Positions 1 through 34,128 of a stretch of DNA of 64,000 bases are shown here, piece by piece. This DNA is from Nitrosopumilus sp. (GTDB taxonomy: Archaea > Thermoproteota > Nitrososphaeria > Nitrososphaerales > Nitrosopumilaceae). Position 1 is the stretch's first letter, and each line of letters begins with the position of its first letter. Both the position numbers and the translations under genes were made by a program. Where the stretch lies: assembly GCA_965207075.1 (NCBI GenBank), contig CBDBLO010000002.1:2121282-2185281 (forward strand), given 5' to 3'. The notes beneath the pieces were generated by a model. It searched no databases. It worked only from the letters and a program-made list of their open reading frames with translations, and was not told the DNA's origin.

Positions 1-1
1 A

Positions 2-901
2 AGAGGAGGGCGACCCGCAACGGCCCTGACAAAGCGCATAATCCCGTGCCTTGACGTCAAGGATGGCAGGGTGGTAAAGGGGACCAGGTTCGTGGAGATC
101 AGGGACGCGGGCGACCCGGTCGCGCTGGCCAAGCGGTACAGCGACGAGGGGGCCGACGAGCTCGTGTTCCTGGACATTACCGCGTCAGACGAGAGGCGCA
201 AGACCATCCGGGAGCTGGTGCGCGGGGTGGCGTCCGTAATAGACATCCCGTTTACCGTCGGCGGCGGCGTCTCGACGATGGAGGATGCCCGCAACATACT
301 GCTGAGCGGCGCAGACAAGGTCGGGATCAACACGGGCGCCATAAACAACCCGCCGATCATAACCGAGATGATGGGCCTGTTTGGGCGGCAGTGCGTCGTG
401 GTCGCAATAGACGCGAAGAGAAACTACGGGGAGCCCGCGGACCGCGGGCGCAGCGGCGAGGGCTCCGCTGACGGCGGGGGCGGGGGCTCCGCTGACGGCG
501 TGGGCGGGAGCGGCCCGCCGGTCATGCTGGAGGATGACAGCGGCCGCCGGTTCTGGTTTGAGGTGCACACGTACGGGGGCAAGAAGGGCACCGGCGTGGA
601 CGCCATACGGTGGGCAAGAAGGGCCCAGGGGCTCGGCGCAGGCGAGATACTGCTGACCAGCATGGACAGGGACGGCACAAAGGACGGCTACGACCACGAG
701 CTCACCAGGCGCGTGGTGGACGCGGTCTCCATTCCCGTGATAGCGTCCGGCGGCTGCGGGCATCCCGGCGACATGGCCGACGTCTTTGGGGCGACCGGCG
801 TGGACGCGGCGCTGGCAGCCTCCATATTCCACTACCAAGAGTACGGCGTGTCCGGCGTAAAGCGGATCCTCAGGGACAAAGGCATTCCTGTAAGGTTATA
901 A
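2..901 (+). CDS. hisF: Imidazole glycerol phosphate synthase cyclase subunit (5' end at or before the window edge)
   Basis: Frame open from base 2. Reads [53 protein letters not shown]. Contains a Gly/Ser-rich insertion at ~430-520. Confidence 0.95.
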
Positions 902-924
902 GATGCGCACGCTGCGTGGGCGCA

Positions 925-1260
925 GTGGCCCAGATCGACATTGACGCAATCGACTTTGAGAAGGGCGGCGGGCTCGTCCCCGTTATAGTACAGGACGCGG
1001 ACACGCGGGAGGTGCTGACCCTTGCATACGCAAACCGCGAGTCGCTCGGGCTCGCGGCCAGCACGGGCAGGTCGTGGTTCTACAGCCGCTCAAGGGACAA
1101 GCTCTGGATGAAGGGCGAGGAGTCGGGAAACGTCCAGGACGTCAGCGAGATACTGGTGGACTGCGACTCTGACGCGATCATATACCTGGTCAAGCCGGCG
1201 GGGCCCGCGTGCCACAAGGGGGAGCGCGCGTGCTTTCACAACAGGCTTGCAAGACAGTAA
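925..1260 (+). CDS. hisI: Phosphoribosyl-AMP cyclohydrolase
   Basis: GLVPVIVQD, SRSRDKLWMKGEESGN, DCDSD and GPACH...CF motifs. GTG start inferred at 925. Confidence 0.93.
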   Translation: MAQIDIDAIDFEKGGGLVPVIVQDADTREVLTLAYANRESLGLAASTGRSWFYSRSRDKLWMKGEESGNVQDVSEILVDCDSDAIIYLVKPAGPACHKGERACFHNRLARQ

Positions 1261-1313
1261 CGGCCTAGGGCACATGGGCGCACCACACCTGCCGAGTCGG
1301 AGAGCCGCACGGG

Positions 1314-1862
1314 CTATTGCCCCGGGTCGCCGGCCGGCGGACCCTGCAAGTCCACGACGTCCGTCTCGGCGCCGGGGGCGAACTCGTCGACCACCTCGAA
1401 GAATATCTCGTCGTTGTTTATCCCCTCAAACCATATCATCCACTGCCCCACCAGCTGGTCCTCCTCGTAGAGGCCCTTGATTGCAGACGTGTCCGGCCTG
1501 AAGTAGAACTTTGCCACCTCGCGCTCGGACCCGTCGTACGCCCTCTCCAAAAAGATCTTGCCCTCCGGGCTTGCCACCCTGACTATCACCTGCTGGCCCG
1601 GGGTCAGCGTCCCTGCAAAGAACACGTCCTCGCCGAGCCTGTACGCCTCCTTGTTGATTCCAAAGGCGCCTGCCGTGTTCCAGACCTCCTCTGGCTCGTC
1701 CGGCTGCTCCGAGCCGCCCCTCACATAGTCCGACAGCGGGTTGTCCAGTATGAACCGCTCAGTGTCGGCTCTGTGCTCATCGTAGTCCGACAGGCTGGAC
1801 GCCAAGAACATACCGCCAACTATACCAACCGCCGCGAGTCCTATTATGATCTTGCCTATCAT
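1314..1862 (-). CDS. Membrane-anchored hypothetical protein
   Basis: 182 aa ORF with an N-terminal hydrophobic helix and an acidic soluble domain. Confidence 0.75.
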   Translation of the reverse strand: MIGKIIIGLAAVGIVGGMFLASSLSDYDEHRADTERFILDNPLSDYVRGGSEQPDEPEEVWNTAGAFGINKEAYRLGEDVFFAGTLTPGQQVIVRVASPEGKIFLERAYDGSEREVAKFYFRPDTSAIKGLYEEDQLVGQWMIWFEGINNDEIFFEVVDEFAPGAETDVVDLQGPPAGDPGQ

Positions 1863-2286
1863 TTACAGTGGTACGGCAACGCCATCTTATAATTATTGAG
1901 CATGGGCTCTCCCAAAAGCCCGCCCTCCCGCCGCGCCATAACTCACGGGACAAACAGCTCGACGCCGGCACGCGGCCGACGGCTCAACGCGGCCGACCCA
2001 AACACAGGAACAGCCAAGCGGCAAGTGGCGCCGTCAGCGATTTCCCTCCCTCCTCCCCCTACCCCCCCCCCAGACTCACAAGCGCGGGCCGCGGTGACAT
2101 CTGGGGCATCGCGGCGCCGTCCGGCGCGCACCGCATGTTTCGGGCCATCCCCGGACGGCGCACACGCGCAGCCGGCAGCAAACCCATGACGGAGCCGCAC
2201 GGCGTCCGAACCGCCCTGCGCCGCAGTTATTCGACGTTTGTACCAAAATCCAACCGCTAAACCCTTAAATAGAAATCTGAAACCAC

Positions 2287-2574
2287 GTGAGTCAATTACT
2301 GATGAGGGGCATGCTTGGAATATCCTTGGTACTGATAGCAGTAGCGGCGGCAGTGGCGATCATACCGGCCGCCGGCGTCGCGCTTGCGGCCGGCGACGAG
2401 CCCGGCGAGTACATCGACCGCCGCGTGCTCATCTGGAACCTGTTCTTTAGGATGATGACAGTCGCGTTCACGGTCGGGGCAGTCGTATCCGGCACGATAA
2501 TCTGGCAGGTGTGGCGCTTCCGTGAGTCGCACCCCAAGGCAAAGCCTACTCCGTACGAGGGGACTGACTGGTAG
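2287..2574 (+). CDS. Small membrane protein equivalent to the N-terminal membrane part of heme-copper oxidase subunit II (split coxB)
   Basis: Signal/TM helices followed by WRFRES. Abuts the CuA-domain gene. TTAAATA box at 2265-2271. Confidence 0.7.
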   Translation: MSQLLMRGMLGISLVLIAVAAAVAIIPAAGVALAAGDEPGEYIDRRVLIWNLFFRMMTVAFTVGAVVSGTIIWQVWRFRESHPKAKPTPYEGTDW

Positions 2575-3009
2575 ATGGCCGGACATCACTCAAACTGGCC
2601 CGAGTGGATATACATCGGGATCGTGGTGGCGCTCATGACATGGGTCGGGGCCGAGGCCTGGGAGGTCGAGCGCCTCATCGAGCACGTCCCGGCCGACGCG
2701 GAGATCATAAAGGTGACGGGGCAGCAGTGGTTCTGGACCTTTGAGCACGAGGACGGCACAAAGGAGATAGGCGAGCTGCACCTGGAGGCGGGCAAGGCCT
2801 ACAAGTTCGAGGTGGTGGCCACTGACGTCATACACTCGTTTAACATACACGACTACGTGGTGCTGATAGACGCGGTCCCGGGCAGGGTGAACACGGTGTG
2901 GTTTGCGCCCGACGAGCCGGGCGTGCACGACATACAGTGCCGCGAGTACTGCGGGCTGATACACTACAACATGCGCGGCACGCTGTACGTGGAGGAGCCG
3001 TCGTCATGA
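2575..3009 (+). CDS. coxB: Heme-copper oxidase subunit II (CuA domain)
   Basis: GQQWFWTF, DVIHSF and CREYCGLIHYNM CuA ligand motif. Confidence 0.93.
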   Translation: MAGHHSNWPEWIYIGIVVALMTWVGAEAWEVERLIEHVPADAEIIKVTGQQWFWTFEHEDGTKEIGELHLEAGKAYKFEVVATDVIHSFNIHDYVVLIDAVPGRVNTVWFAPDEPGVHDIQCREYCGLIHYNMRGTLYVEEPSS

Positions 3010-3118
3010 CGCGGAGAGGATGTGGGATGGGGACGAGCATTGACATTATGATCAACATACGGGCCGGGCGTCCGGCCGATGCCACCGATTATAATGTGGC
3101 GGGAGGTGCACACGCATC

Positions 3119-4645
3119 ATGGTTCTAGAGCTGCAAAAGCCGCGCCCCATATGGCAGATAATGTTCTCGACCCACCACACCGACGTGGGGCTCCTGTACC
3201 TCATAACGTCCCTGGCGTTCCTGTTCCTGGGCGGAGCGCTGGCGCTCGCAATCAGGGCGGAGCTGTTCCTGCCGGGGGCCCAGATCATAGGCGACGCGAT
3301 GACGTTCAACCGCATATTCACAGTCCACGGCACCACGCTGATCTTTTTGTTCATCATACCCTTCGCGTCTGCAGTCGGCAACTACTTTGTCCCGATAATG
3401 GTCAGGTACAAGGACATGGCGTACCCAAAGCTCAACGCGATCGCGTTCTGGATGATACCTCCCTCCGGCGCCCTGATATGGCTCGGCTTTGCGGACTTTA
3501 CGTGGTACGCGACTCCCCCCTACTCGATAATCAGCGCCCCGGGGCCGGCTGCCGACATGTGGATATTCGGCCTCAAGATCCTTGGCGTATCCTCCGTGCT
3601 GGGCGCGATAAACTTCGTCGTCACCATACTAAAGTGCAAGCATCCGGACATGTCGATAGGGCAGGTCCCGCTGCTGGCGTGGTCCTTCCTCTCCTCGTCG
3701 CTCATCATACTGGTCGCAATCCCGACCTTTGCGGCCGCGCTGCTGATGCTGCTCACCGACCGCCTCGGCGTGAGCGGCTTCTTCAACCCCGCGCTCGGCG
3801 GCGACCCGATAGCGTACGCGCACCTGTTCTGGTTCACTTTCCACCCCGAGGTGTACGTGCTTGTGATCCCGGCGATCGGGATGATGTACGAGATAATACC
3901 GAGGTTCTCCAGGAGGCCGATCTACAGCTACAGCTCCGGGGTGTTCGCGTTCGTCCTTCTGTCGATAGTCGGGTTCTCCTCGTGGGCCCACCACATGTAC
4001 GCGACGGGCATGTCGTTTACCGAAAAGACCGTGTTCATGGTCGGCACGCTGGCGGCGGTTCCCGCGTCTGCCATGCACGTGTTCAACTTTATCGCCACTA
4101 TGTGGAACGGCCGCATCAGGTTCTCCACCCCCATGATGTGGGCAGTCGGCGGGATCGCGCTCTTCTTCTCGGCGGGTGCCGGCGGCGTCGTCAACAGCGC
4201 AATGCCGCTGGACTTTACCACGCACGACACCTACTGGGTGGTCGGACACTTCCACCTCTTTGTGATGGGTACCATAGCGTTCGGGTCCATCGGGTACCTC
4301 TACTACATGTTCCCGTACGTGACCGGAAGGATGTACAACGAGACGATGGGCAAGATACACTTTGTAATGTCGTTCATCGGCACCATCCTGGTGTTCTTTA
4401 CGCAGCACGTGCTCGGGCTGTACGGGATGCCGCGGCGCATATTTGACTACCCGCCCATACCGGAGTGGATCGCGATGAACCAGATCGCGTCGATAGGGGC
4501 TATGATAATCGGGGTCAGCATGGTGGTGTTCCTGGCAAACATGATACACAGCTCCGCAAAGGGCGAGCCGGCAAACACGGACGACCCGTTCGGCGTGGGC
4601 GGCAGGTACTATTACCCGTTTGAGGCAAAGAACCCCTCGCATTGA
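3119..4645 (+). CDS. coxA: Heme-copper oxidase subunit I
   Basis: HGTT, WFTFHPEVY, WAHHM and GHFH ligand motifs; many TM helices. Confidence 0.97.
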   Translation: MVLELQKPRPIWQIMFSTHHTDVGLLYLITSLAFLFLGGALALAIRAELFLPGAQIIGDAMTFNRIFTVHGTTLIFLFIIPFASAVGNYFVPIMVRYKDMAYPKLNAIAFWMIPPSGALIWLGFADFTWYATPPYSIISAPGPAADMWIFGLKILGVSSVLGAINFVVTILKCKHPDMSIGQVPLLAWSFLSSSLIILVAIPTFAAALLMLLTDRLGVSGFFNPALGGDPIAYAHLFWFTFHPEVYVLVIPAIGMMYEIIPRFSRRPIYSYSSGVFAFVLLSIVGFSSWAHHMYATGMSFTEKTVFMVGTLAAVPASAMHVFNFIATMWNGRIRFSTPMMWAVGGIALFFSAGAGGVVNSAMPLDFTTHDTYWVVGHFHLFVMGTIAFGSIGYLYYMFPYVTGRMYNETMGKIHFVMSFIGTILVFFTQHVLGLYGMPRRIFDYPPIPEWIAMNQIASIGAMIIGVSMVVFLANMIHSSAKGEPANTDDPFGVGGRYYYPFEAKNPSH

Positions 4646-4663
4646 TGATGATGATGATGATGA
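4643..4663 (+). repeat. (TGA)7 microsatellite starting at the coxA stop codon
   Basis: tgatgatgatgatgatgatga. Confidence 0.9.
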
Positions 4664-4680
4664 TGGTAGTGTGGTAAGAG

Positions 4681-5682
4681 ATGGCAGACGGCAGAAGCAG
4701 CGGGACGCAGCAGCAGGTGTACATGACCACGCCGGCCAGGACCGGCAAGATGATGGCCATAATGCTGGGCATATGCATAGTTGGAGGCGCCATCTTCTTC
4801 GGGATGTGGGACTATTGGATATCCGAGCCGGCCCCGATCGTGGCGATAATGGCGGCCTCCACCGCGGCGCCCGTCGCGGAGCAGGCGGAGCAGACGGGCC
4901 AAACCATAACCTCGGACCTAGTCTTCATCGAGGCTGACGACTTTATCACGATGGCCTTCAACGCGCTGCCCGGCGAGGAGGGCAACAACCCGACCATAAA
5001 CATGAACGTGGGCGACAAGGTCGTGTTCAACGTGGTAAGCGACGGCATCTCGCTGCACGCGTTTGGCGTCACGCAGGAGGAGGAGGGCACCGCTGGCATC
5101 ATACCCGGCACCGAGATCGGCAGCCCCAACAGCCCGATGCTGAAGGGGGACAGCGGCACCGCTGAGTTCGTGGCCGGCGAGGAGGGCACCTACTATTACA
5201 TATGCACGGTCCCCGGGCACAGGGCACAGGGCATGGAGGGCACCATTGTGGTGGGCCCCGCGCCCGAGTCTGGGGACGGCGGCAGCGGAGGAGGAGGAGG
5301 AGAGGCGGCCCCCCCGACCGGCATATCGCACGAGTTTGAGTTTGACTATGTAGAGTCCGACGACTTTAGGACGTTCGGGTTCAACGGGCTTGAGGGCGAG
5401 GAGGGGGCAAACCCCGAGATTGTGGTCAACTCCGGCGACGAGATTACGGTCACCACGGTCAACGTGGGCGTCTCGTTCCACTCGTTCGGGGTGGTGGCAG
5501 ACCCCGCCGACTTTGCAAACGTGCTGTGGGGCTCGGAGATAGGGTCCATGACAAGCCCGCTTAAGAACGGCGAGAGCGGCTCAGTCACGTTCACGGCCGG
5601 GGCGCCGGGCAAGTACTATTACATCTGTACCGTTCCAGGCCACGCCCTGCAGGGGATGCAGGGGGTCCTGACTGTCGAGTAG
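4681..5682 (+). CDS. Membrane-anchored tandem blue-copper (cupredoxin) protein
   Basis: One TM helix, then two domains each with an upstream His and YYYICTVPGHxxxGM (type-1 Cu ligands). Confidence 0.9.
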   Translation: MADGRSSGTQQQVYMTTPARTGKMMAIMLGICIVGGAIFFGMWDYWISEPAPIVAIMAASTAAPVAEQAEQTGQTITSDLVFIEADDFITMAFNALPGEEGNNPTINMNVGDKVVFNVVSDGISLHAFGVTQEEEGTAGIIPGTEIGSPNSPMLKGDSGTAEFVAGEEGTYYYICTVPGHRAQGMEGTIVVGPAPESGDGGSGGGGGEAAPPTGISHEFEFDYVESDDFRTFGFNGLEGEEGANPEIVVNSGDEITVTTVNVGVSFHSFGVVADPADFANVLWGSEIGSMTSPLKNGESGSVTFTAGAPGKYYYICTVPGHALQGMQGVLTVE

Positions 5683-5684
5683 CC

Positions 5685-6314
5685 TTGGCTGCCATAAAGT
5701 ACCTTGCACTATCGAGCATGATCGTGCTGTACTCGCTCATGTTCCTTGGCGGGTACATATCGGCCGCGGGCCTGGGGCTCACGTGCCCCGAGTGGCCGCT
5801 GTGCCCGGACGGCATAATGCCCTCAGAAGAATACCTGATAGAATGGATACACAGGCTGGCCGCCGCCACCACGGGCGCGCTCGTGGTCGCCACCATGATC
5901 GCCGGCTTCCTGCACAGGGGGGCCGATGCCAAGATCAGGGTCACGAGCTCGCTTGCGACCGTCTTTGTCATAGTCCAGATCACGCTCGGGGCGCTCGTCA
6001 TCGACCTAAAGCTGCACGCCGTCCTGGTCGCGATACACCTGGGGATAGGGATACTGCTGTTTGCAATGGTGCTGCTGACGACGCTGTTTGCGTTCCGCAT
6101 ACAGTCGCCCGCAAAGGCCGTTGCGCATGGCCGCAGCGGTGGTAGCGGTAGCAGCAACGGCAACAATAGCAGCAGTGACGACAACTATGGCACTGGCGAC
6201 AGTGGCGATAGCAGCAACGGCAACGCCAACCGCAACGGCCGCGGACTACGCCGGAACTCCGGCGGCGGCGCCAAGATGATGCAGGATGCCGCAACGGCGG
6301 ACGTTGCGCACTGA
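5685..6314 (+). CDS. ctaA: COX15/CtaA-family heme A synthase (short form) with low-complexity C-terminal tail
   Basis: GLTCPEWPLC, IEWIHR and QITLG...H motifs. Confidence 0.85.
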   Translation: MAAIKYLALSSMIVLYSLMFLGGYISAAGLGLTCPEWPLCPDGIMPSEEYLIEWIHRLAAATTGALVVATMIAGFLHRGADAKIRVTSSLATVFVIVQITLGALVIDLKLHAVLVAIHLGIGILLFAMVLLTTLFAFRIQSPAKAVAHGRSGGSGSSNGNNSSSDDNYGTGDSGDSSNGNANRNGRGLRRNSGGGAKMMQDAATADVAH

Positions 6315-6382
6315 CTAGGTACTGGAGGGACGACGACGACGGCCGCCGCCGCCGCCGGCCCCGCACGCATACCACATACAGA

Positions 6383-7012
6383 TCACCGGCCAAACGGAGG
6401 ATGCCTGCCGCCGGCCCCGCCGTCTCCTCCCCCCTCTCGCCGCCGCCATCGCCGCTGCATCTTCGGAAGGTAGATGTACGCCATCACGCCTGCAAAGCAG
6501 AACGCCCCGACTGTAATGGATATGATAAAGATGTACCCAAACGGGCTCTGCGTGCCCATGTTGAACGTATACGTGGTTACCCCGGGCTTGTCCACCATGT
6601 CATAGAGGTCCACCTTTACGATGTGGTTTCCCTGATACCGCCACGTGTGCCCAAAGTCCCAGTGCCCCCCCTCTATGGCCGTGGGCGGGACCGCGTCCAC
6701 CTGCTGCCCGTTGTAAAAGAACCTGATTCCCATCGTGAACCTGTCTACCTCCTCAAAGTCCGTGTCGGTCACCCGGACCAGAAACATCGACGGCTCGTCG
6801 ATCTGGGGAAACTCGGGGGCCGTCGCAACCTGCACCCTGTACCCCGCCATAAACTCCTCGGCCGAGTTGAACATGGAGTGCCCCGACGCCTCCTGCGCGC
6901 CCGGCACCAAGGCGCACGCCGCGCACAGCAGAGCGATCGCGGCCACGCCCCGGACGAGGGCGGACCCCGGGGCCTTCTTCTTCTGCCGCCCTCCCGCCGG
7001 TTTTGTCATCAT
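6383..7012 (-). CDS. Exported, membrane-anchored hypothetical protein
   Basis: Signal peptide followed by His (GHSMFN) and a C-terminal TM helix. Confidence 0.7.
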   Translation of the reverse strand: MMTKPAGGRQKKKAPGSALVRGVAAIALLCAACALVPGAQEASGHSMFNSAEEFMAGYRVQVATAPEFPQIDEPSMFLVRVTDTDFEEVDRFTMGIRFFYNGQQVDAVPPTAIEGGHWDFGHTWRYQGNHIVKVDLYDMVDKPGVTTYTFNMGTQSPFGYIFIISITVGAFCFAGVMAYIYLPKMQRRWRRREGGGDGGAGGRHPPFGR

Positions 7013-7065
7013 ACTCTGGGATCGTCTTCAAAAGCTTTAAATCCTTATTGGCAAGAGTCGGATCG

Positions 7066-7677
7066 TTGACACTTGTCACGAAATCCACCGAGATAAAGGT
7101 GCCAGTCGACAGCGTCTTTACCTATTTTGCGCGGCCCGAGCACGTCTCGGATCAGATGAAGAGCGAGACGGTGGGCATGACCGTGATCCCCATGGACATC
7201 AAGGAGGGGATGGGGGTCGGAACCACGTTTCGCGTGATAGGCGACTTTGGAGGCAAGCGGCTGGAATGGGACTGCGAGACCACCGAGTTTGTGCGCAACA
7301 AGCGCATATCCGCAGAGCAGACTGAGGGCCCGTTCAAGAAATGGGCCATCACAAACGAGTTTGAGGAGCTCGGGGCCAACCTGACCAGGGTTACCATGTC
7401 AGTGGACTATGAGATGCCCTTTGGCCCGCTGGGCGCCATCCTGAACAAGGCAAAGTTTGCAAAGTCCGCCGAGAGGGGCATGGAGACGGCCCTGTACAGC
7501 GTCCGCGGACTCTTGGAGGGCAACGGCTCGATTCCCGTATACATCACGCTTGACGCGTATCAAAAGCTGCTCGAGGAGAAGAAAAAGATGAACGACGTGC
7601 CGGTCTCCACCGCGCTGACGGCCATCATACAAAAGTACAACCAGATAGAGCAGAAAGAGCTTGCCGTCACAGGATAG
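7066..7677 (+). CDS. SRPBCC / polyketide cyclase family protein
   Basis: START-like pattern (TRVTMSVDYEMPFGPLG). TTG start about 25 nt after a TTTAAA box at 7036. Confidence 0.8.
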   Translation: MTLVTKSTEIKVPVDSVFTYFARPEHVSDQMKSETVGMTVIPMDIKEGMGVGTTFRVIGDFGGKRLEWDCETTEFVRNKRISAEQTEGPFKKWAITNEFEELGANLTRVTMSVDYEMPFGPLGAILNKAKFAKSAERGMETALYSVRGLLEGNGSIPVYITLDAYQKLLEEKKKMNDVPVSTALTAIIQKYNQIEQKELAVTG

Positions 7678-7812
7678 GCAGCGCCGTGCGTTTCTGACGT
7701 TTTCAAACCGCGAGCATCTAGCCCGCTTGCGACGCCCGTGTCCCGCCTCCGGCGTCCCGCGCCCCGGCGGATCTGAAGATTATAATAGTAATTTTGCGCC
7801 GTCCGTAACGGT

Positions 7813-7886
7813 GGGTCTATGGCGCAGCCAGGTAGCGCTCAGGACTCTTAATCCTGCTGTCGTGGGTTCGAATCCCTCTAGACCCG
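7813..7886 (+). tRNA. tRNA-Lys (CTT)
   Basis: Acceptor GGGTCTA/TAGACCC, anticodon arm CAGGA-CT CTT AA-TCCTG, T loop TTCGAAT. TTATAA box at 7780-7785. Confidence 0.97.
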
Positions 7887-7893
7887 CTACTAT
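7873..7893 (+). repeat. attL (tRNA-Lys 3' end)
   Basis: 16 bp identical core, 20/21 bp match to 34108-34128. Confidence 0.9.
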
Positions 7894-9358: not shown

Positions 9359-9664
9359 GGTTTTTATGCGCCCCGCGGCACTGGCCGCATGGACAGTAAG
9401 ACATGCCCCGTATGTTTGCGCGCCTTGGACCTGCATTCTGACGCGGAGGTCATCGCCTGCGCACGCGCCTTGACATCCCGCACGCACGCGGAAAAACCGC
9501 GCCAGACCGCGCAGGAATTCACGCACTGATCGACGTAGGCGCCAAGTCCCGCCGGGTACTGCTTCCAATTCGTGATACGCGGCCTTGCGAGACGGCGATA
9601 CCGTACTTGGATCGTACTATGTGAAGTATGCGCGCACTTAAAAGGGGGCAGATCGCAATGGAGA

Positions 9665-9748
9665 CGGCGGCCGGGGGATTCGAACCCCCATGCGCTTGCG
9701 CGCGGCGATTCAGGAGATCGCTGCCAAACCGGGTATGGCGTAGCTGCC
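9665..9748 (-). tRNA. Non-canonical class II tRNA-like gene, anticodon CCT, Ser-like body
   Basis: GGCAGCT-AC-GCCA[TACCCGGTT]TGGC-A-GCGAT[CT CCT GA]ATCGC-C GCGC[GCAA]GCGC AT-GGGGG[TTCGAAT]CCCCC-GGCCGCC-G, 84 nt. Confidence 0.8.
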
Positions 9749-9867
9749 ACCTATTCCCTACGGGCGTGCTGCGCTTTTATCCGTAACTTTCCAAGGTGAG
9801 GCTTCCAATTCGTGATACGCGGGCGGCGGTCTCGATCTTTTATATGGATCTGGGGTCTGGAGATCGC

Positions 9868-10329
9868 ATGGGCTACAAGAAGGGAGACTTGTGCCCCAAG
9901 TGCGAGAGCGGCATATTAGTCGTAGGTGGCGAGGTAACAGTATCCGGGGAGGACGGCGACGAGTGGTCTCGGAAGATCATCCTAAGGTGCCCCAACTGTG
10001 ACCAGCGTCCTCTTTCCGTCGAGCTCGAAGGCCTTGTTAGGAACCGGGAACACGTGGCGCCAAAGGTGGACTTTGTCAGATTTGAGGAGATGTGCGAGCT
10101 CCTGCTCAAGTTCCTTAAAGAATCTGACGGATGGCTCCTGCTGGATGCCATAGTGTCACAGTGCTTTACGGGCAAAAAGGGCAAAGACGGGAGGCTGTTC
10201 CTGTCAGACCGGGAGGACTGGAACACGGTGAAAGGCATAGTGGTGTATTTCGAGCTTGACGGGCGGTTGGAATCCAGGCCGCACAACGGCAATCCGGAGC
10301 TGAGAGAGTACAAGTGGAAGATACCATGA
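9868..10329 (+). CDS. Zinc-ribbon hypothetical protein
   Basis: CPKC...CPNC. TTTATAT box about 25 nt upstream of ATG 9868. Confidence 0.7.
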   Translation: MGYKKGDLCPKCESGILVVGGEVTVSGEDGDEWSRKIILRCPNCDQRPLSVELEGLVRNREHVAPKVDFVRFEEMCELLLKFLKESDGWLLLDAIVSQCFTGKKGKDGRLFLSDREDWNTVKGIVVYFELDGRLESRPHNGNPELREYKWKIP

Positions 10330-10381
10330 ATCCGTGATACGCAGATCGCAGGCGGGGGAAAGGAGAGATCGCAAGACTTGA

Positions 10382-10690
10382 TCAACTCCAACCCAAAACC
10401 GCCATGATACTGGCTATGGATCCCGCGACTGCCAGCAGGTAGATGATGTACTGGAGGAGCGGGCTGATTTTGCGTATGTCTTCGGAGAAGATGTCGATGT
10501 CCGGGTGTGTTTCGCTGTACTTGGCCAGCGCTCGCCTGAAGGCCTTCTGGTTCCTTGTCCTCCGTTCCCACTTGTAGTGGTTGTGCCTCGGGGCTACCTG
10601 CACCTGTGCGATGGTCAGGCCTTCCACCTTCAACAGGCGTTCAAGCTCATCGCACATGGCTTGATCCAGGGCCTTGTCCTTCAGGGACAT
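10382..10690 (-). CDS. Hypothetical protein with C-terminal TM helix
   Basis: ORF from MSLKDKAL with a hydrophobic C-terminus. Confidence 0.55.
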   Translation of the reverse strand: MSLKDKALDQAMCDELERLLKVEGLTIAQVQVAPRHNHYKWERRTRNQKAFRRALAKYSETHPDIDIFSEDIRKISPLLQYIIYLLAVAGSIASIMAVLGWS

Positions 10691-10728
10691 GCGTAGACGC
10701 ACGTTGGATGGTGAGCAGCGCCTTTTGC

Positions 10729-10971
10729 TTAATTTTTGATAGGAAACTCGACCGTCTGGACCTTGTTCCTGCACCTTTCGAAAATTTCCCTGGCGATCTT
10801 TTCCGACTGTTTTTCATCGTCAATGCTGATCTTTGCAGACAAGTCGAAGGAGGGCGAGTTTGGCAGATCCTTGAGGCTTACAAACCCCATCTTTTTCAAG
10901 GTCTCCTTGACGCTTGGACACGCCTGGCTCTCATTGCAAAGTATCCGAAACTCATATTCCATTTCCATCAC
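10729..10971 (-). CDS. Small hypothetical protein (possible ACT/ferredoxin-like fold)
   Basis: 80 aa with an alternating beta/alpha pattern. Confidence 0.55.
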   Translation of the reverse strand: MMEMEYEFRILCNESQACPSVKETLKKMGFVSLKDLPNSPSFDLSAKISIDDEKQSEKIAREIFERCRNKVQTVEFPIKN

Positions 10972-11190
10972 TATTCCTATGATCCCGGGCTACTCCGGGA
11001 TGAAGGGGTCATACGTGGTGCAGGGCGAGCACTGGCCCGGCGAGCACCAGCTTGAGGCCGAGGTGTACAGGCACGGCTATCTTGCAAAGTCCTATTATTC
11101 GGAACCGTTTACGCTGGAATGAGCGTGGCTTCTAATACCTCTTCATTTTTCAAAGGTTTTTGCTTCTGTGAGAGGAAGGGGAGGTGATAA

Positions 11191-11563
11191 GATGGAAGAC
11201 GAAACTGCAACGGATGACTTTGTGAGCCATTTCAAAGATCTAATCAAGAACCTAGACCTACACAAAGGCAAAATCGTTTATCACGACGGAATGGTAGGCA
11301 TTGGAATCAATGTTCGCGACAGCCTTTCAAAAATAAGCAAGGATGACGGAGACCACATAGACGAATGCGTAGTCGAGATGAATGAAAAAATCAAAGATCT
11401 AGGTGCTTCAGCAAGACAGGTTTCGGGCAACTATAACGACATGCCCACCCGTCTCGAATGCGTGATAAGGGCTGGCCACATACGCGATCTGGCAGACACG
11501 ATAATAGAGCGTGCTGGTGCCGTGCCAACGGAAGAATACGTGCCCAGCACCGGTACTCCCTAG
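11191..11563 (+). CDS. Hypothetical protein
   Basis: ATG preceded by GGAGGTGA Shine-Dalgarno; normal composition. Confidence 0.65.
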
Positions 11564-11712
11564 TTCCTACTCTGACTGCTACGACGCTCCATTTCGAGCT
11601 CACGTTCCCTGTTTCTTTTTTCCCTTTCTTCCCTGTTTGGGAACCCAAGGGCGTCAAACAGGTTGTCAATGGCTTCTTCTACGTCATAGCCGACACGAGG
11701 TTTTTGACTCAT
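11560..11712 (-). CDS. 50-aa small charged protein (not in the ORF track)
   Basis: MSQKPRVGYDVEEAIDNLFDALGFPNREEREKRNRERELEMERRSSQSRN*, converging on the previous gene. Confidence 0.45.
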   Translation of the reverse strand: MSQKPRVGYDVEEAIDNLFDALGFPNREEREKRNRERELEMERRSSQSRN

Positions 11713-11813
11713 TGTTTCGCCCACCCCGTGCCTGCGTTTCCGAGAAGATCGCGCCGCGTATCACGAATTGGAAGCAGTGCCTCCCGCCGCGCTCTTTATA
11801 AAGTTCCAACATA

Positions 11814-12531
11814 GTTACCCGCAAACTTTCATAGAACTCTATGAAAGTTTGCGGGTAACCTCCGCGGCACCACATGCACATGGGCAGGAAGTCAGGCAGT
11901 GGGCGCCAAGTGCCTCGGGCTTGGCTGGCGCACGGATGGCGGGCCTGCCGCATGCCCGCCGTAGGCGGGACGGGCTGGCGGGATCCGGGGCGCAGCGCGT
12001 GTCAGGAGGCGGCTGCCGCCGCCGACGATGATCAAGCAGGAAGCGAGCGTTGCGATGCAGGTACGCCCCGTCGCCACCGCCATACCCGCAAACAATCATA
12101 GAGCTCTATGACAGTTTGCGGGTATCTGCCGCATGCCCGCGGGCGCCCGTGCAGGCCGCCGCAGGTGCGGAACCAGCCTCTCCCGTGACGGGCGTATCTG
12201 CTAGAAGGTGACAAAGAAATCTGACATTCTGCACGTTTGCCACCGTCCGCCCCGGCCTGCCCGCAACCTGCCCCGTATGCTTGCGGCATCAGACGCTAGG
12301 TTCACTGTGGTACACTTTAACAGCGGGAGGCAGGGCGAGCCAGCGGGACCCGGGGCGCAGCATGTGCTCGGAGGTGGCTGCTGCTGCTGCCGGCTATGGT
12401 CAAGTCGGAAACGGTGTTCCGACGCAGGTACGCTCTCCTCCCCTCCCTCCCTCCCTCCCTCCCCCCCCCCCCGACGCCGCCGACTGTTACCCGCAAACCG
12501 TCATAGAATTCTATGACACTTTGCGGGTAAC
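11814..12531. repeat. Three related 44-46 bp palindromes (11814-11859, 12082-12125, 12486-12531)
   Basis: Consensus GTTACCCGCAAA-nnn-TCATAGA-RY-TCTATGA-nnn-TTTGCGGGTAAC. Copy 1 has perfect 22 bp arms. Confidence 0.95.
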
Positions 12532-13244: not shown

Positions 13245-14730
13245 AATTCTGTTTCCTAATTCCGCCGTGGGCATCCGCCCCTGCGGCTTTGAGGCAGGCA
13301 TGCGTTAATTTGTTCAATAAAATTTGACAAAACGGCCAAAGGGCGCTCATGCAGGCGTTGAAATGCTTATGGCGAAAGTCAGACACGATGTATCCCACAT
13401 CTGCGTGCCCAGACAGACGCCAACGCCTGTTCGCGGCGTCGGCATTTAACCATGACTCGATCCCCCCTCCGGGCGCCTGCCGGGGCGGCGCGGCGCGGCC
13501 AGCCCGGGGGAATTCGGCGTACTGGAGGGGGCGGAGCCGCCCATGAGCCGGACGCGGGGCGCCGCAGCGGCGGGAACGGACAACGAAAAGTACGTCAGGC
13601 GCGGCGCGGACCTGTTCATAGAGTATGATCCAGGGTGGGAGGATGACGTGGGGCGCGCAAACGAGGGCAAGGTCGGCGCCCCGTACCGGTACGCGGAGAC
13701 GCTCATCATGCTGGCCGCCGCCTTCAGGGGCGCGCTGGGGATCCGGTACAGACAGCTCGAGGGGATGGTCGGGAAGATGGTAGGCGGATCCAACACGCCC
13801 GCATACAGCCAGCTGTACAAGCGGATCAACAGGCTTGACGCGGACATCCGCCGGAACCCGGACGGGATGGTGACGGTGTCGGACAGGAAGGGGTCGCGGA
13901 TGCTGGCGCTCGACGCAAGCGGGCTCAAGCAGCACAACAGGGGCGAGTGGATGAGGGCCAAGTGGAGGGTTAGGCGGGGCTTTGTAAAGATGCACGTGCT
14001 GGTCGACACGGAGACCATGAAGATACTCGCGCTGGAGGTCACGGACGATGCCGTGGGGGACTCGACCATGTTCGAGTCGCTGCTCGGACAGGTAGTGGAC
14101 GCGGGCGGCGCGCGGCACACGGAGCCGCCCGCCGCGCCACGTTCCGGCGGCGGCCCGAGATACGAAAACCTTCTCGCGTCCGGCATCCCCCCGCTCGCGT
14201 CATTCTTCCCGGGCGCCCCCCGGAACCGGGCCGCGCCCGACCTCCTGCTTGGCGACGCCGCGTACGGATCAAGGAAGAACGTGGCCGCGTGCGCGCGGGC
14301 AGGGGTGACCCCTGGCATTGCACACACCATCAACGTGACGGCGCGTGGCAGGGGATCCGGCGACGCGTGGGGCATATCCGTAAGGGACCAGATGGGCGGA
14401 AGCCCCGACGCGACGCGCCTGGACCTGATGGGCAGGGAGGAGAAGAGGGAGAACCAGGCGTACTGGAAGGCCCGCATAGGCTACGGCCACCGCTGGATCG
14501 CGGAGGCCGTGTTTTCGGTATTCAAGCGCCTGTTCGGCGAGCACCTGATGGCCCTCAAGTGGGAGAACATCGTGCAGGAGATAAGGCTCAAGGTGATCCA
14601 GTACAACAAGTGGAGGGATGAGTCGATAGCGCGCGAGGCGGGAGGCGGGACTTTCTGATGGTGTGACGACCATGTCGTCGTCCGATAGGAATCCAACAGG
14701 CACCCAGACGGCGAATTAGGAAACAGAATT
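13245..14730 (+). mobile_element. IS5-family insertion sequence
   Basis: TIRs AATTCTGTTTCCTAATT(C)CGCCGT. 8 bp target duplication TGATGCGC at 13237-13244 and 14731-14738. Confidence 0.9.
13543..14658 (+). CDS. IS5-family DDE transposase
   Basis: ALDASG, GFVKMHVLVD, LGDAAYG and YGHRWIAEAVFSVFKR motifs. Confidence 0.92.
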   Translation: MSRTRGAAAAGTDNEKYVRRGADLFIEYDPGWEDDVGRANEGKVGAPYRYAETLIMLAAAFRGALGIRYRQLEGMVGKMVGGSNTPAYSQLYKRINRLDADIRRNPDGMVTVSDRKGSRMLALDASGLKQHNRGEWMRAKWRVRRGFVKMHVLVDTETMKILALEVTDDAVGDSTMFESLLGQVVDAGGARHTEPPAAPRSGGGPRYENLLASGIPPLASFFPGAPRNRAAPDLLLGDAAYGSRKNVAACARAGVTPGIAHTINVTARGRGSGDAWGISVRDQMGGSPDATRLDLMGREEKRENQAYWKARIGYGHRWIAEAVFSVFKRLFGEHLMALKWENIVQEIRLKVIQYNKWRDESIAREAGGGTF

Positions 14731-14760
14731 TGATGCGCCATATCTACTTAAGGGACAAAA

Positions 14761-16107: not shown

Positions 16108-16650
16108 TCATTTTGTTTTTTCATACACGTCCATGAGCCTTCCTGCGTTCATCAAATAGCTCACGCTATACTTTGAGCAGCACAGCCTCGTTCTCTTAAA
16201 GTCTGAGCGCTGGCGTAATCCCTCCATGTATTCTGGAGGTATCTTGTATGCGTCGGTGATTATAACGCCACCGATCTTTAGAAACTTGAGCGCATCCAGA
16301 AATATCTTCTTCGGGTTACGATGAATGTTGTTGATGACATTGACACATATCACTACGTCTGTTTCTTCCACGTGATCGCTGACATCTGAAGCATCCTTGG
16401 GTATGAACTCGTCCAGATTTGACCCTGCTGCCTCGCTCGAATAGGGGTCAATCCCGACCGCATGCACCTCGACACCTTTTGAAGAGAGGCACTCCTTGCA
16501 CCCTGTGAGGGCCGTTCCGTCCGAGCATCCGATGTCAACTATGACGAGTCTGTCGTTTGCATGCGCAAAATGTTGGTAGATGTAGTTTGGTATGCCCAGC
16601 TCGTCATACCGAGTCCTCCATGTTGTCTTGAGTCTGAACAAGTCCATCAA
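16108..16650 (-). CDS. Class I SAM-dependent methyltransferase
   Basis: IVDIGCSDG motif I, GIDP, DVVIC, LKIGG. Overlaps the hsdR stop. Confidence 0.75.
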   Translation of the reverse strand: MMDLFRLKTTWRTRYDELGIPNYIYQHFAHANDRLVIVDIGCSDGTALTGCKECLSSKGVEVHAVGIDPYSSEAAGSNLDEFIPKDASDVSDHVEETDVVICVNVINNIHRNPKKIFLDALKFLKIGGVIITDAYKIPPEYMEGLRQRSDFKRTRLCCSKYSVSYLMNAGRLMDVYEKTK

Positions 16651-19600
16651 CTCCCAGCCCAGTTCTTTGCTATGACTTCTGCTTGGCTCAGAACGGTATC
16701 AGTGGCCTTCTTGGCCTTGTCGGGCGGATATTCGTACCTCTTCAGGATCTTCTTGACTTCCAGTCGGATTGCAGCCTGAACGCTTGCCTTTTGCGTCCAG
16801 TCTATTGTGACGTTCCTTCTTATCATGTCAGTCAGCTCCTTTGCAATCGACGCGAGTACCGCATCTCCCATGATCCTTACCGCGCTGTCACTGACCCCAA
16901 GCGCGTCATAAAACGCAAGCTCGTCCTCATCCAAGTCTAGCGTTCTGCCCCTGCCTCTCTCTTCCCGGATCTGCCTTGCAATCTTGATAAGCTCGTCTAT
17001 GACCTCGCTTGTGCTGATTCTCTTGTCATTGTATCTTCTGATGGTATCCTCCAGCAAGTCGCGGAAGGATCTCCCCTTGACTATGTTCCTCTTTGAGTAT
17101 ATCCTAATCTTCTCCTCAAGTATCCTCCTGAGCGCCTCGCGCGCAAGATTCTTCTCGGGAGATTTCCTGATGTTTGAGAGGAAGACTTCCGACAATATTG
17201 ACACCTCCGTACCAGGACTTCCCGCGTTGCCGATTATGTCGATTATCTCATCGGACACGATGGCCTTTGAGATTATCTGCTTTATCCCAACATCAAACCT
17301 CTCGCGGTCGGCGCCGCTGTATCCGGTGGTCTTTGTGACTGCCGCCTTTATGGCCTCGAAGAACCCCATCTCCTCTTTGATTCTCATGGCCTCCTCCCTC
17401 GGAAGTGCTATGGAGAACGCGCCGCGCAACAGGGCAAACTCCTTCTGGAACCTCTCCTTTGTGCCCGGCTCCCTCAGTATGTGATCTACCGCGCGGGACA
17501 TGAACGGCACTCGCTTTTCAGGCCTGAGGTTGAAAAATTCCATGTAGTCAAACCCGTGGAACATGCACTTGACGACATCGTATTTTTCAAGCATTGCAGA
17601 CACTGCGTCATCCTGCACGTTGGTTTGCTTGCCGCGGCCGCCGCTCCTCGTGTAATTTGACATGGCATTCTTTATCTCCCTGCTCATGTCCATATAATCG
17701 ACAATCAGGCCCCCCTCCTTGCCCGGGTATACCCTGTTCACCCTTGCTATTGCCTGCATCAGGGTGTGGCCGTCCATCCATTTGTCCAGATACATAGTGT
17801 GGAGCGAGGGGGCGTCAAACCCGGTAAGGAACATATCCCGTACTATGATGATCTTGTGCGCGCCCTTGGGATCCTTGAACCTGTCGCCGATGGCCCTCCT
17901 TTTTTGTTTGCTTCGTATGTGCTCCTGCCACGGTTCTGGATCGGACGCAGAGCCGGTAAACACTACCTTGATCAACCCCTTGTCGTCGTCCTTGTGGTAC
18001 CAGTCGCGGCGCTGCTCGACGATCTCGTCGTGCAGCTCAACGCATATCCTTCTAGACATGCAGACAATCATTGCCTTGCCCTCCAAGACGGAGCTCCTCT
18101 CTTCGTAGTGTCTTATAATGTCGCCGGCGATCTTCTTGATGCGGGCAGGTGCTCCTACCAACTTCTCCATGCGGGACCACTCTTTCATTATTTCCTCCCT
18201 TTCGTCAGTCTCGCTTCCTTCAGTCACCCTTGCAAAGTCTTCATCAATGCGCGGGCGCTCTGTGGATCTTATGTCAACGGGCACAAACTTGTTCTGATAG
18301 TAGATTCTGACTGTGGATCCGTCCTCCACTGCCTGTTGCACATCGTAGATGTCTACATAGTCGCCAAATACGGTGGGAGTGGAACGGTCTTTTTGCTCGA
18401 TCGGCGTGCCGGTAAACCCGATGAAGGATGCGTTGGGCAGGGCGTCCCTCAGGTATTTGGCAAGACCGTATGCGACTTGCGGCGCGTCGTTTCTGTTGAC
18501 TATCTTGGCCGCGAACCCGTAATGGCTTCGGTGCGCCTCGTCTGCAATAACCACTATGTTGTCTCTTTCTGACACGGCGTGATGCTGGTCGCGGTTCTCC
18601 GGTAGAAACTTTTGGATGGTAGTAAACACGATCCCACCAGATGCGACGCTTAGCAGATCTGATAGATCCCTTCGCGCCTCGGCCTGCACGGGCTTTTGCC
18701 GCAGTATGTCTTGGCATCTGCCGAACGTGCCGAACAGCTGGGCGTCAAGGTCGTTTCTATCTGTGAGCACTACTATGGTGGGGTTGTCCATACCGCGGAT
18801 CAACTTTCCCGCATAAAACACCATGGTTAGTGACTTTCCGGATCCCTGTGTGTGCCAGACCACGCCTGCCTTTTTCGTGTCGCCCCGCGCACTGATCGTG
18901 GACTGCAAAGCTTTGTTGGCCGCCCAGTACTGGTGGTAGGCTGCCATCTTTTTTGTTGTTTTTTCACCCTTCTCAAACACGATAAAATTCCGTATGATGT
19001 CCAAGAGCCTACTCTTCTCAAACATTCCGCGTAGTAGAACCTCAGTCTGAGAAAGTCCTCCGCCAGGTCTTGCACCGTCAATGGTCTTCCACTCCATGAA
19101 TCTCTCCATGCCAGATGACATGGTTCCGGCCCTTGCCTGCATGCCATCGCTTATTGTGAGAATCTCGACATACCTGAACAGATCCGGAATTTTTTTCATG
19201 TACGTCTGGAGCTGGTTGTATGCAGACCAGATGTCCGCCTTTTCATCTGCCAGATTCTTCAGTTCGAAGACTACCAGCGGGATACCGTTTACAAACAGTA
19301 TAACGTCGGGCCTGCGCTCGTCATCTCCCTTTATGGTGAACTGGTTGACTGCTAGAAAGTCGTTGCTACGGATTTTGTCGTCGTCAAACTCAAAGAGCCA
19401 TGTCTTTTCGTACCGCTCACCGGATTCCGTCTTGACTGGGACGTCCACCCCGTCAACCAGCATCTTGTGAAATGATTCGTTATCGGTAATCGGGTGCTGG
19501 GAAGAGCTCCGCAGTACCTGCCTTATCGCATCTTCTACTGCAGGCCCGGGAATACCCGGATTAATTCTCTGCAGTGCGCCTCTTAGTCTGTCCACCAGCA

Positions 19601-21325: not shown

Positions 21326-21334
21326 GTGATCTAT

Positions 21335-21916
21335 TCAACTCCTAGAAGTTTTATGCAAGTTTTTTGTAGATATATCAGCTTTGGAGCTTTTAGTTTTTTT
21401 AAGCTCAGCATTAAGATCGCGCAATCTGGATTCCAATTTGGTGATCTCGGATTCAATATCGTTCTTTGTTGGTCTCTTAGATATCGGAGATGGGACAGCG
21501 TGGCCATCCTGCAAACTAGATAATACGTATTGCGCTTCGTGTAGAAATTCAGATGCAGCTTCAAAAACATATTGTGCTTTTTCTTCATCGTATGTGTGAC
21601 TAGTAATTCCACGATTTTTTCGATACTGATCCCAAACAGAAACGTCTGATCGAATAAGATCCTTTTTGTATGCTTCACGAATAATGTCTTTGAAATTCAT
21701 AGATGCAACTTCTGCAGGGTTAAACAATGCCATTCCCAAATGTCGCTTGATCATTTTAAGAGTTATTTCATACGTGAATTCAAAGGATTGTATAACGGCA
21801 CTACGCATGTGTTTTTTGTGCTTTGGGCTTTTTTGAATTGTTTCATCATAATATGTATCGAGCGCGTCTGCAAGCTGAGCAATCGCTTTTTCCAGTGATG
21901 TAAGGTCAAGATTCAT
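21335..21916 (-). CDS. HI0074-family HEPN protein with C-terminal coiled-coil extension
   Basis: IQSFEFTYE and RGITSHTY (Rx4HxY). Located between hsdM and MNT::hsdS. Confidence 0.88.
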   Translation of the reverse strand: MNLDLTSLEKAIAQLADALDTYYDETIQKSPKHKKHMRSAVIQSFEFTYEITLKMIKRHLGMALFNPAEVASMNFKDIIREAYKKDLIRSDVSVWDQYRKNRGITSHTYDEEKAQYVFEAASEFLHEAQYVLSSLQDGHAVPSPISKRPTKNDIESEITKLESRLRDLNAELKKTKSSKADISTKNLHKTSRS

Positions 21917-21920
21917 GTAT

Positions 21921-29173: not shown

Positions 29174-29177
29174 ATAC

Positions 29178-34107: not shown

Positions 34108-34128
34108 TCCCTCTAGACCCGCTCCTAT
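34108..34128 (+). repeat. attR (copy of tRNA-Lys 3' end)
   Basis: TCCCTCTAGACCCGCTCCTAT. GC content returns to backbone level right after it. Confidence 0.9.

Follow-up and report, generated by a model that had tools for sequence, protein, structure and literature searches.

How does a tRNA gene with the body of one amino acid family and the anticodon of another come to lie on a mobile element, and what might its product do there? The question is raised by an 84-nucleotide (nt) gene on the minus strand of the window, the 64,000-nt stretch of Nitrosopumilus sp. DNA analysed here (assembly GCA_965207075.1, contig CBDBLO010000002.1, positions 2,121,282 to 2,185,281), for which an original prediction, made from the letters alone, had proposed a Ser-type body with an Arg (CCU) anticodon. 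The cloverleaf is genuine, not a product of chance, and the gene is the cargo of a discrete transposon. Serine-shaped tRNA genes with non-Ser anticodons occur in 12 further genomes of the Nitrosopumilaceae. The reading tentatively preferred below, although it stops short of being probable in itself, is that of an element-borne missense tRNA with low or conditional activity, serving the element.

Body and anticodon of the gene, and its carrier

Read on the minus strand from 9748 to 9665, the gene consists of GGCAGCU A C GCCA UACCCGGUU UGGC A GCGAU CUCCUGA AUCGC C, continued by GCGC GCAA GCGC AU GGGGG UUCGAAU CCCCC GGCCGCC G. These letters form D, anticodon and T stems of 4, 5 and 5 base pairs (bp), a variable stem of 4 bp with a GCAA loop, and an acceptor stem of seven pairs, comprising five Watson-Crick pairs, a U7:G66 wobble and an A4:C69 mismatch; 24 of the 25 pairs of the cloverleaf are standard. 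The anticodon CCU (9712-9714) lies in the loop CUCCUGA, with G at position 37, and G18G19, U33, the UUCGAAU T loop and the discriminator G73 are all intact. This architecture, predicted originally down to the acceptor mismatch, is borne out by the sequence and by ARAGORN, which called a tRNA-Arg(cct) at 9663-9749 (-) of the window. The general form of a tRNA is thus present (a 7/5 acceptor/T split, a 7-nt anticodon loop, U33, G18G19 and a T loop of the form UUCRANY), whereas the invariant core of U8, A14 and A21 is missing: positions 8, 14 and 21 hold A, U and U in place of the near-universal U, A and A, and the Levitt pair 15:48 is A:U. The A8:U14 swap and the A15:U48 pair of the original prediction are therefore real.

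That the cloverleaf did not arise by chance follows from a control in which ARAGORN made a single call, not a long-armed one (no call reached 82 nt), in 6 Mb of sequence simulated with a second-order Markov model built from the host genome. Folding energy alone is ordinary and counts against the observation, the minimum free energy of -37.4 kcal/mol corresponding to z = -1.31, with 25 of 200 shuffles folding equally well. Two open reading frames (ORFs) crossing the locus, at 9364-9750 (-) and 9572-9799 (+), were considered as real genes and rejected, as both run across a transposon end or end copy.

The body was assigned with three covariance models, built from the candidate alone, from 14 tRNA-Ser genes of the genus and from five host tRNA-Arg genes. 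On the Ser model the candidate scored 66.8 bits (E = 5e-13), compared with 56-58 bits for host tRNA-Leu and 32-46 bits for host tRNA-Arg, while on the Arg model it reached 18.1 bits against 91.7 bits for true tRNA-Arg; the conflict between a Ser model and an Arg anticodon call, anticipated in the original prediction, does appear. The candidate-only model, with a self score of 116.3 bits, found matches in 151 of 151 genomes searched in the genus (its own included), mostly four per genome, and its top loci typed by ARAGORN (L012-L022) were tRNA-Ser(GCU) genes at 67-68 bits. The variable arm reproduces host Ser geometry (1 nt, 4 bp, tetraloop, 2 nt). Judged by isotype features, the candidate has the long arm of Ser geometry and the G73 of a tRNA-Ser without its NGA or GCU anticodon, and the Arg anticodon with C35 of a tRNA-Arg without its class I body and A20. 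The latter base, rightly named beforehand as an Arg feature, is found in all five aligned host tRNA-Arg genes and is U in the candidate. A further proposal, that the long arm is a non-canonical intron in a class I tRNA-Arg, was rejected, since both the D arm and the body as a whole agree with tRNA-Ser rather than with tRNA-Arg. On these comparisons the body is of the serine type and the anticodon that of Arg.

The host tRNA-Ser(GCU) at G000:C2:584218-584301 is also 84 nt long, has the same arm architecture and shares with the candidate an identical T stem, G73, G1:C72 and a D arm of the form GCC..GGC; one base change separates GCU from CCU. The two genes differ at 2:71, 8, 14, 15, 21, 26, 30:40, 44 and 48. 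Counted by eye, 11 stem pairs are altered on both sides, with one mismatch, and the persistence of pairing through these changes indicates that the candidate is no recent copy of the host gene. Its highest identity to any tRNA-Ser is 62 of 84 positions, in an alignment against ARAGORN-called tRNAs of at least 80 nt from the fetched loci.

The status of the gene as cargo is established by an empty site. In a related genome (locus L101) with a 93% identical integrase the target is uninterrupted, window position 9554 joining 11782, and the 2,227 bp missing there form an IS6-like element that ends in terminal inverted repeats and is flanked by a duplicated target of 8 bp. The description "island-borne" was correct insofar as the gene lies inside a 26-kb defence island, but it had missed the transposon. 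An additional internal copy of the left end places the gene between two direct left-end copies. A putative promoter, an A/T box, precedes the gene; most of the listed host tRNA genes have an A/T-rich box at about -35 to -27 (by eye), and the host tRNA-Ala(cgc) has AATAAAAGCG at the same distance as the box of the candidate.

Serine-shaped tRNAs in related genomes

Of the homologue search and covariation analysis proposed originally, the former returned no orthologue, and the latter could be carried out on analogues. These are 22 further tRNA genes of serine shape, ending in G73 and having anticodons other than those of Ser, in 12 related genomes of the Nitrosopumilaceae; they were obtained from genomes with surplus matches to the candidate model and from a pattern scan of 401 family genomes, 12 of which matched. 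Together with the candidate they make up a set of 23 genes from 13 genomes, with the anticodons GAA (10), GAU (6), UAU (5), CAG (1) and CCU (1, the candidate); one GAA gene has an intron-like insert in the anticodon loop. Two matches in genome G031 (L047 and L049/L119) were left out, since contig C63, which holds the latter, has 69% G+C and may be contamination, and L047 shares its atypical body. Rows for tRNA-Lys and intron-bearing tRNA-Ser(GGA) were also excluded from the alignment.

Pairing is kept in 97.7% of the pair cells across the 23 rows, and 20 of the 25 pairs have changed on both sides, values reached by none of 500 shuffles and lost when the alignment is slid, to be read with the proviso that the alignment was fitted to a model and that the genes are mutually related. 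All share the 7/5 split. U33, a purine at position 37 and a 7-nt anticodon loop are retained in 21 of 23, and C2:G71 is missing from the candidate and from 19 of the 22 analogues. The core letters are largely canonical in the other 22 (U8 and A14 in 21 each, A21 in 19); A8, U14 and A26 occur in the candidate only, A15 in two and U21 in three of the others.

These genes lie on transposons and restriction-modification islands, the only neighbours recurring among the 18 neighbourhoods compared being a DNA methyltransferase family (5/18) and transposases. At least eight intact units, which have a TATA box in common and a T-run directly adjoining the tRNA, are found in the island of genome G145; the same island encodes a VirB11-like ATPase, six N6_N4 methyltransferases and genes of the MmeI and BglII types. 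The copy in G157 is a tRNA(UAU) on an IS6 transposon (end repeat of 30 bp, duplication of 8 bp) that also has genes for a transposase, an HNH nuclease and a methyltransferase. Elsewhere the serine-shaped tRNA lies directly upstream of a Type ISP enzyme (G112), between a helicase and a methyltransferase-helicase pair (G152) or next to a Pol-beta nucleotidyltransferase (G156). Degenerate copies stand beside intact ones in G145 and G163, scoring 28.7-37.8 bits on the Ser model.

Some further observations concern the arrays themselves. At G145:C2:177000-225000 (L097-L100), intact units and several degenerate copies are interspersed with the methyltransferase genes; a unit of about 190 bp comprises the promoter, a serine-shaped tRNA (GAA, GAU or CAG) and the T-run, and between copies the acceptor and T arms are near-constant while the D and variable stems covary. 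At G163:C1:1696900-1699600 (L126, L134, L137, L138, L176), four pattern matches fall within 3 kb in a cassette-like array of two intact GAU tRNAs (ARAGORN) and weak further copies (Ser model), its spacers holding short, zinc-finger-like ORFs (by eye) and a conserved upstream repeat. In IMG/VR, the loci L152, L154, L157 and L170 are bacterial-type serine-shaped tRNAs with G73 and the anticodons GAA, CAG, GAU and CAA, placed among 25 ordinary tRNA-Ser(GCU) of viral contigs that share their T arm and acceptor end.

Possible roles of the RNA

The preferred reading supposes a serine-lineage (class II) tRNA gene, cargo in a defence island, whose anticodon became CCU. It would be transcribed from its own A/T box and processed into an L-shaped RNA, which SerRS would charge through the long arm and G73, ignoring the anticodon; ArgRS would not accept it because it lacks A20 and has G37, and AGG would then be read as serine. 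Such a missense ("toxic") tRNA would serve a mobile element in addiction, abortive infection or counter-defence, and not in routine decoding. On the classical rule the SerRS determinants are the long arm and G73, with the anticodon disregarded (PMC9976931), and the candidate, which retains G73 and G1:C72, is likely to be charged by SerRS on this rule, though not assuredly so. AGG, correctly described as frequent, makes up 20.5 per 1,000 codons in 199 long ORFs and is the commonest Arg codon of the genome.

The unusual core fits the same reading, as the changes at 8, 14 and 21 concern one tertiary triple and 15:48 covaries. When the anticodon of a yeast tRNA-Ser was varied in a library, the 11 anticodons most strongly depleted included GAU and GAA, and CCU proved "highly toxic"; with GAA, GAU or CCU the tRNA-Ser body inserts Ser at Phe, Ile or Arg codons (PMC6125640). 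An archaeal set dominated by anticodons toxic in yeast would be better explained by selection for, or tolerance of, missense capacity than by drift of an unused loop, and it is this anticodon bias, together with the AGG frequency, that inclines us to the missense reading. A wider and unlikely proposal is that element-borne Ser-accepting tRNAs, with the anticodons that would render a Ser-tRNA most toxic (GAA, GAU, UAU, CCU), act as RNA toxins, with mistranslation as an addiction, abortive-infection or inter-element weapon; IS6 transposons and conjugative islands would carry them together with restriction-modification genes, and the candidate would be the Arg(AGG) member, its rewired core tuning activity or hiding it from a host enzyme.

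A number of findings weigh against the missense reading, which is itself built from sequence analysis. C2:G71, G26, G30 and U44 are invariant in all 14 aligned tRNA-Ser genes of the genus, and the candidate lacks all four, having G2:C71, A26, A30 and C44; the pair G30:C40 has been reported from an archaeon as one of the weaker elements for SerRS (PMC9976931). With these features missing, serylation of the candidate is something we infer. U8, A14, G15 and A21 are all replaced, in addition to the acceptor A:C mismatch. The Rfam tRNA model (RF00005) does not report the gene at its gathering score of 29 bits, nor is it among the 50 genome-wide matches to that model, the lowest at 15.8 bits; in a permissive scan of 600 nt its tRNA score stays below 15.4 bits, displaced by a tmRNA T-arm match of 15.4 bits. 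The possible terminator is not adjacent to the gene, the T-run beginning 22 nt beyond its end. Finally, a constitutively active Ser-tRNA(CCU) would be expected to be harmful at the observed frequency of AGG.

No orthologue was found either, in BLAST, candidate-model and pattern searches. BLAST of the gene against 60 relatives gave T-arm-region matches of at most 28 nt and one 48-nt match at 76% identity, and the nine fetched loci with short matches are tRNA-Ser genes by ARAGORN. The candidate model, run on 150 genomes of the genus and 150 of the family, gave no score between 69.4 and 116.3 bits. Exact-pattern scans, which detect near-identical relatives only, returned no match to a 21-mer or a 25-mer in metagenome contigs and none to a 25-mer in the viral scan, where five 17-mer matches, none of them a tRNA by ARAGORN, were judged by eye to be chance. 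Selection on the candidate itself is consequently beyond the reach of covariation.

These findings bear directly on the main rival, that of a recent relic: a tRNA-Ser or missense tRNA of the element which functioned once, was inactivated and is now carried passively; it is a serious possibility, if on balance a doubtful one. Function would have been lost through changes at 8, 14, 15, 21, 26, 30, 34 and 4:69. The Rfam score of the candidate contrasts with 39.5-63 bits for 14 analogues, 29.1 bits for a degenerate copy in L100 and 51.9-59.4 bits for the three intron-less host tRNA-Ser genes. It alone of the 23 genes has A8, U14 or A26, it is one of three with A15 and one of four with U21, and the A4:C69 mismatch, the absent Ser-invariant letters, its orphan status in the searched genomes, metagenome and viral contigs, and the decayed copies beside intact ones in G145 and G163 all point the same way. 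Decay sits less well with 24 of 25 standard pairs and a Ser-model score still at 66.8 bits, or with the preservation of G18, G19, U33, the T loop, G73 and the A/T box. The anomalies, moreover, fall on one tertiary triple with complementary letters and are not scattered over the 50 stem bases, and 15:48 covaries.

A decoy, sponge or antitoxin RNA, acting off the ribosome by binding, or being consumed by, a tRNA-directed enzyme of the host or of a rival element (an anticodon nuclease, nucleotidyltransferase or HEPN toxin), is distinctly improbable. The candidate and its analogues do lie in defence or restriction-modification neighbourhoods, and the G156 copy adjoins a Pol-beta nucleotidyltransferase; nucleotidyltransferase toxins preferring tRNA-Ser are known in mycobacteria. 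The eight or more intact copies of G145, with more repeat units, would suit titration better than a toxin, and the widespread absence of C2:G71 could keep these RNAs uncharged. Against this, no partner protein is common to all copies, Pfam and NCBIfam reveal no recognisable nuclease on the transposon of the candidate, and a decoy would have no need of the U33, R37 and 7-nt anticodon loop that nearly all the genes retain. The specific suggestion of the original prediction, a decoy or substrate for the HEPN and Schlafen proteins of the island, found no particular support: both proteins are present as Pfam-level predictions (NTase_sub_bind and AlbA_2), but their genes lie 11-15 kb from the tRNA gene, outside the transposon.

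Still less probable is a supplementary arginine tRNA, charged by ArgRS through C35 and U36 and boosting AGG decoding for the genes of the element. Among Arg codons AGG ranks first both in the island (76 of 287) and in the transposon ORFs (14 of 37), the host tRNA-Arg(UCU), (GCG) and (CCU) likewise have G73 as discriminator, and C35 and U/G36 serve as determinants of Arg identity in other domains (PMC9976931). The Arg-model score of 18.1 bits, the missing A20 and a long arm foreign to every Arg tRNA speak against it, as does G37, where the host tRNA-Arg(CCU) has A, m1G37 being a block to yeast ArgRS (PMC9976931). The host, besides, already encodes a tRNA-Arg(UCU) and a canonical tRNA-Arg(CCU) (C2:118563-118628; Rfam 29.1 bits); the D-arm insert of about 18 nt in the latter, within G000:C2:118503-118688, explains why ARAGORN misses the gene and Rfam barely reports it.

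The view that the cloverleaf formed by chance in G+C-rich DNA, without any RNA gene, could appeal to the modest folding z-score and to spurious ARAGORN calls in genome repeats, such as four "tRNA-???" at C2:712737-713009, but is scarcely credible in view of the simulated control, the 66.8 bits on an independent tRNA-Ser model and a T loop, D loop and discriminator that match tRNA-Ser.

Genomic setting and known counterparts

The features of the transposon and the island are collected in Table 1.

Table 1. Annotated features around the tRNA gene, in window coordinates
Feature	Position	Strand	Basis or remark
Serine-shaped (class II) tRNA gene, 84 nt	9665-9748	-	Cloverleaf reading, ARAGORN, Ser model
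Putative archaeal TATA box (A/T box) GGATAAAAGCG	9775-9780	-	27-32 nt upstream of the tRNA 5' end
Possible terminator, TTTT run	9640-9643	-	22-25 nt past the discriminator; weak, inferred
IS6-like non-autonomous transposon, 2,227 bp, with tRNA cargo	9555-11781		Empty site in L101
Left terminal inverted repeat GGTACTGCTTCCAATTCGTGATACGCGGC	9555-9583	+	29 nt, 97% complementary to the right end
Right terminal inverted repeat	11753-11781	-	Inverted-repeat pairing, empty-site comparison
Target-site duplication TCCCGCCG, left copy, 8 bp	9547-9554		Single copy in the L101 empty site
Target-site duplication TCCCGCCG, right copy, 8 bp	11782-11789		Empty-site comparison
Additional internal left-end copy, tip GGTGAG vs GGTACT	9795-9822	+	Repeat comparison
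Zinc-ribbon-like ORF, 162 aa from the first ATG, orphan	9841-10329	+	Divergent from the tRNA gene
Two small overlapping ORFs, 130 aa and 80 aa	10382-10971	-	ORF list, tblastn
ORF, 131 aa	11168-11563	+	ORF list
tRNA-Lys(CUU), island integration target	7813-7887	+	ARAGORN; Rfam 64.4 bits
att core TCCCTCTAGACCCGCT, 16 bp, tRNA-Lys 3' end	7873-7888	+	Repeat comparison
Second 16-bp att core, right island end	34108-34123	+	Homology to the island-free copy resumes at C2:8352
Integrase-like protein, 459 aa	7979-9358	+	No Pfam match; tyrosine-recombinase motifs by eye
Type I restriction-modification: hsdR, hsdS-nucleotidyltransferase fusion, HEPN-type NTase_sub_bind protein, hsdM	16647-23549	-	Pfam
Schlafen AlbA_2 domain protein	24188-25297	-	Pfam, E = 1.6e-16
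OLD-family ATPase with TOPRIM nuclease domain	30657-32753	+	Pfam

Transposons of the IS6 family (IS26/IS240 type) have GG.ACTG at the start of their inverted ends and duplicate 8 bp of their target. The window element resembles them in its terminal inverted repeats, in the start of its end sequence and in its duplication, and the IS6 element of G157 likewise carries a serine-shaped tRNA; it differs in its third, internal end copy and in having no recognisable DDE (IS240-type) transposase of its own, so that it would need to be mobilised in trans. Pfam and NCBIfam assigned its four to five ORFs to no family and revealed no transposase. The zinc-ribbon-like ORF matched only itself among 5.8 billion proteins, compared at near lengths only, and tblastn homologues of the 130-aa and 80-aa ORFs (40% and 52% identity) lie adjacent in L108. 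The element recurs unchanged in sequencing-run assemblies, as an identical 2,403-nt unitig in X1 and X3 and a 1,895-nt contig in X5; contigs of X6 also show no differences, covering the tRNA region at 9721-9871 only.

The ends of three IS elements examined in the window (13245-14731, 29176-30275, 45044-46081) are unrelated to those of the transposon. Similar ends (26 bp) bound a complete IS6-like element of the same genome at G000:C2:1024050-1028728, which has its own 8-bp duplication GCTGATCA, an IS240-type transposase of 310 aa and an ORF of 511 aa with a DPPF motif, read by eye as that of a DNA methyltransferase. Similar inverted ends were also observed around a 455-aa ORF with a TnpB/OrfB-like N-terminus (by eye; G000:C2:639566-641059) and around a truncated copy of that ORF (G000:C2:1472347-1472883), and at C2:1513955-1514035 and 1517680-1517760 two ends are joined in palindromic units of 80 bp. 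Just past the insertion site, at window 11814-11859, lies a perfect 22+22-nt palindrome (GTTACCCGCAAACTTTCATAGA and its complement), with further copies as far as about 12700; it recurs in related islands (L101, L103, L104 and C2:1914206-1914480) and may be a protein-binding or origin-like repeat.

The island spans 7889-34107 (about 26.2 kb), directly after tRNA-Lys(CUU), and also carries two IS elements. Relatives of its integrase adjoin tRNA genes in other Nitrosopumilaceae, and at ten such loci a serine-shaped tRNA follows the integrase in none. The tRNA gene was considered as a displaced att fragment and rejected as such, the att core being the 3' end of tRNA-Lys and the gene being complete and inside the transposon. 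A sibling island at tRNA-Lys(UUU) (G000:C2:1912212-1915000) has a 92.6% identical integrase region without the tRNA-bearing transposon, homology returning at palindromic repeats.

The host genome comprises 2.23 Mb in two contigs at 60% G+C and includes tRNA genes with introns. Window positions 1-7893 and 34108-58453 repeat the start of the contig (G000:C2:496-32933) at 88-99% identity, the island being present in one copy only; this end/start repeat has the look of a single circular chromosome represented by two strain variants within one contig, and not of a true duplication. A tRNA-Arg(TCG) at G000:C1 (45.9 kb) 26267-26343, identical to C2:67307-67383 and flanked by the same sequence, may also be a duplicate from a strain variant. 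At G000:C2:1186525-1186747, tRNA genes for His GTG, Thr CGT and Cys GCA stand 2-3 nt apart (Rfam 52.8-57.1 bits), each of them a second copy of an isoacceptor that the genome encodes at another locus. The four ARAGORN calls at G000:C2:712737-713009 overlap and follow the 60-bp period of a tandem repeat array.

A literature search extending to sources other than subscription journals and supplementary files found no archaeal tRNA with mismatched body and anticodon, and for A8-U14 tRNAs it returned only unrelated papers; a table of V-arm-containing tRNAs in a 2014 review has no entry for Archaea (PMC4033280). The closest counterparts are the bacterial allo-tRNAs (Mukai et al. 2017, PMC5389517), which like the candidate combine a long-arm body of serine identity with a non-Ser anticodon (UAU, AGA/AGG Arg and Leu among them), some members being active in Ser insertion and others inactive. 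They often occur near transposable elements, as does the candidate on its transposon, and near toxin-antitoxin genes, but are bacterial and are defined by an 8/4 or 9/3 acceptor/T split (a 12-bp branch), in contrast to the 7/5 split of the candidate and its 22 archaeal analogues. The label "allo-tRNA-like" given originally therefore suits the serine body, the foreign anticodon and the mobile setting, in which 22 similar mobile-element tRNAs from 12 genomes now join the candidate, but not the acceptor branch.

Nematode nev-tRNAs and other eukaryotic V-arm-containing tRNAs likewise join a class II body to a class I anticodon (Gly CCC, Ile UAU) and are charged according to the body and not the anticodon; unlike the candidate they are eukaryotic and nuclear, have leucine-type bodies and do not lie on mobile elements (PMC3333845; PMC4033280). 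Engineered yeast tRNA-Ser variants share GAA, GAU and CCU with the archaeal set, the yeast ones being laboratory constructs that insert Ser and are toxic, whereas the archaeal genes are known as sequences (PMC6125640).

The recurrence of the archaeal genes beside restriction-modification genes, with promoters and strong covariation, makes an old question testable in a third domain, beyond the bacteria with their allo-tRNAs and the eukaryotes with their nev-tRNAs: whether such RNAs are tools of deliberate mistranslation, decoys or junk. The candidate adds an unambiguous case of transposon cargo that is a tRNA gene and, of interest to tRNA structural biologists, an apparently compensated swap of the near-universal U8:A14:A21 triple. 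Even if inactive, it marks a class of element-borne tRNAs that standard models can miss or that ARAGORN names Arg, Phe or Ile.

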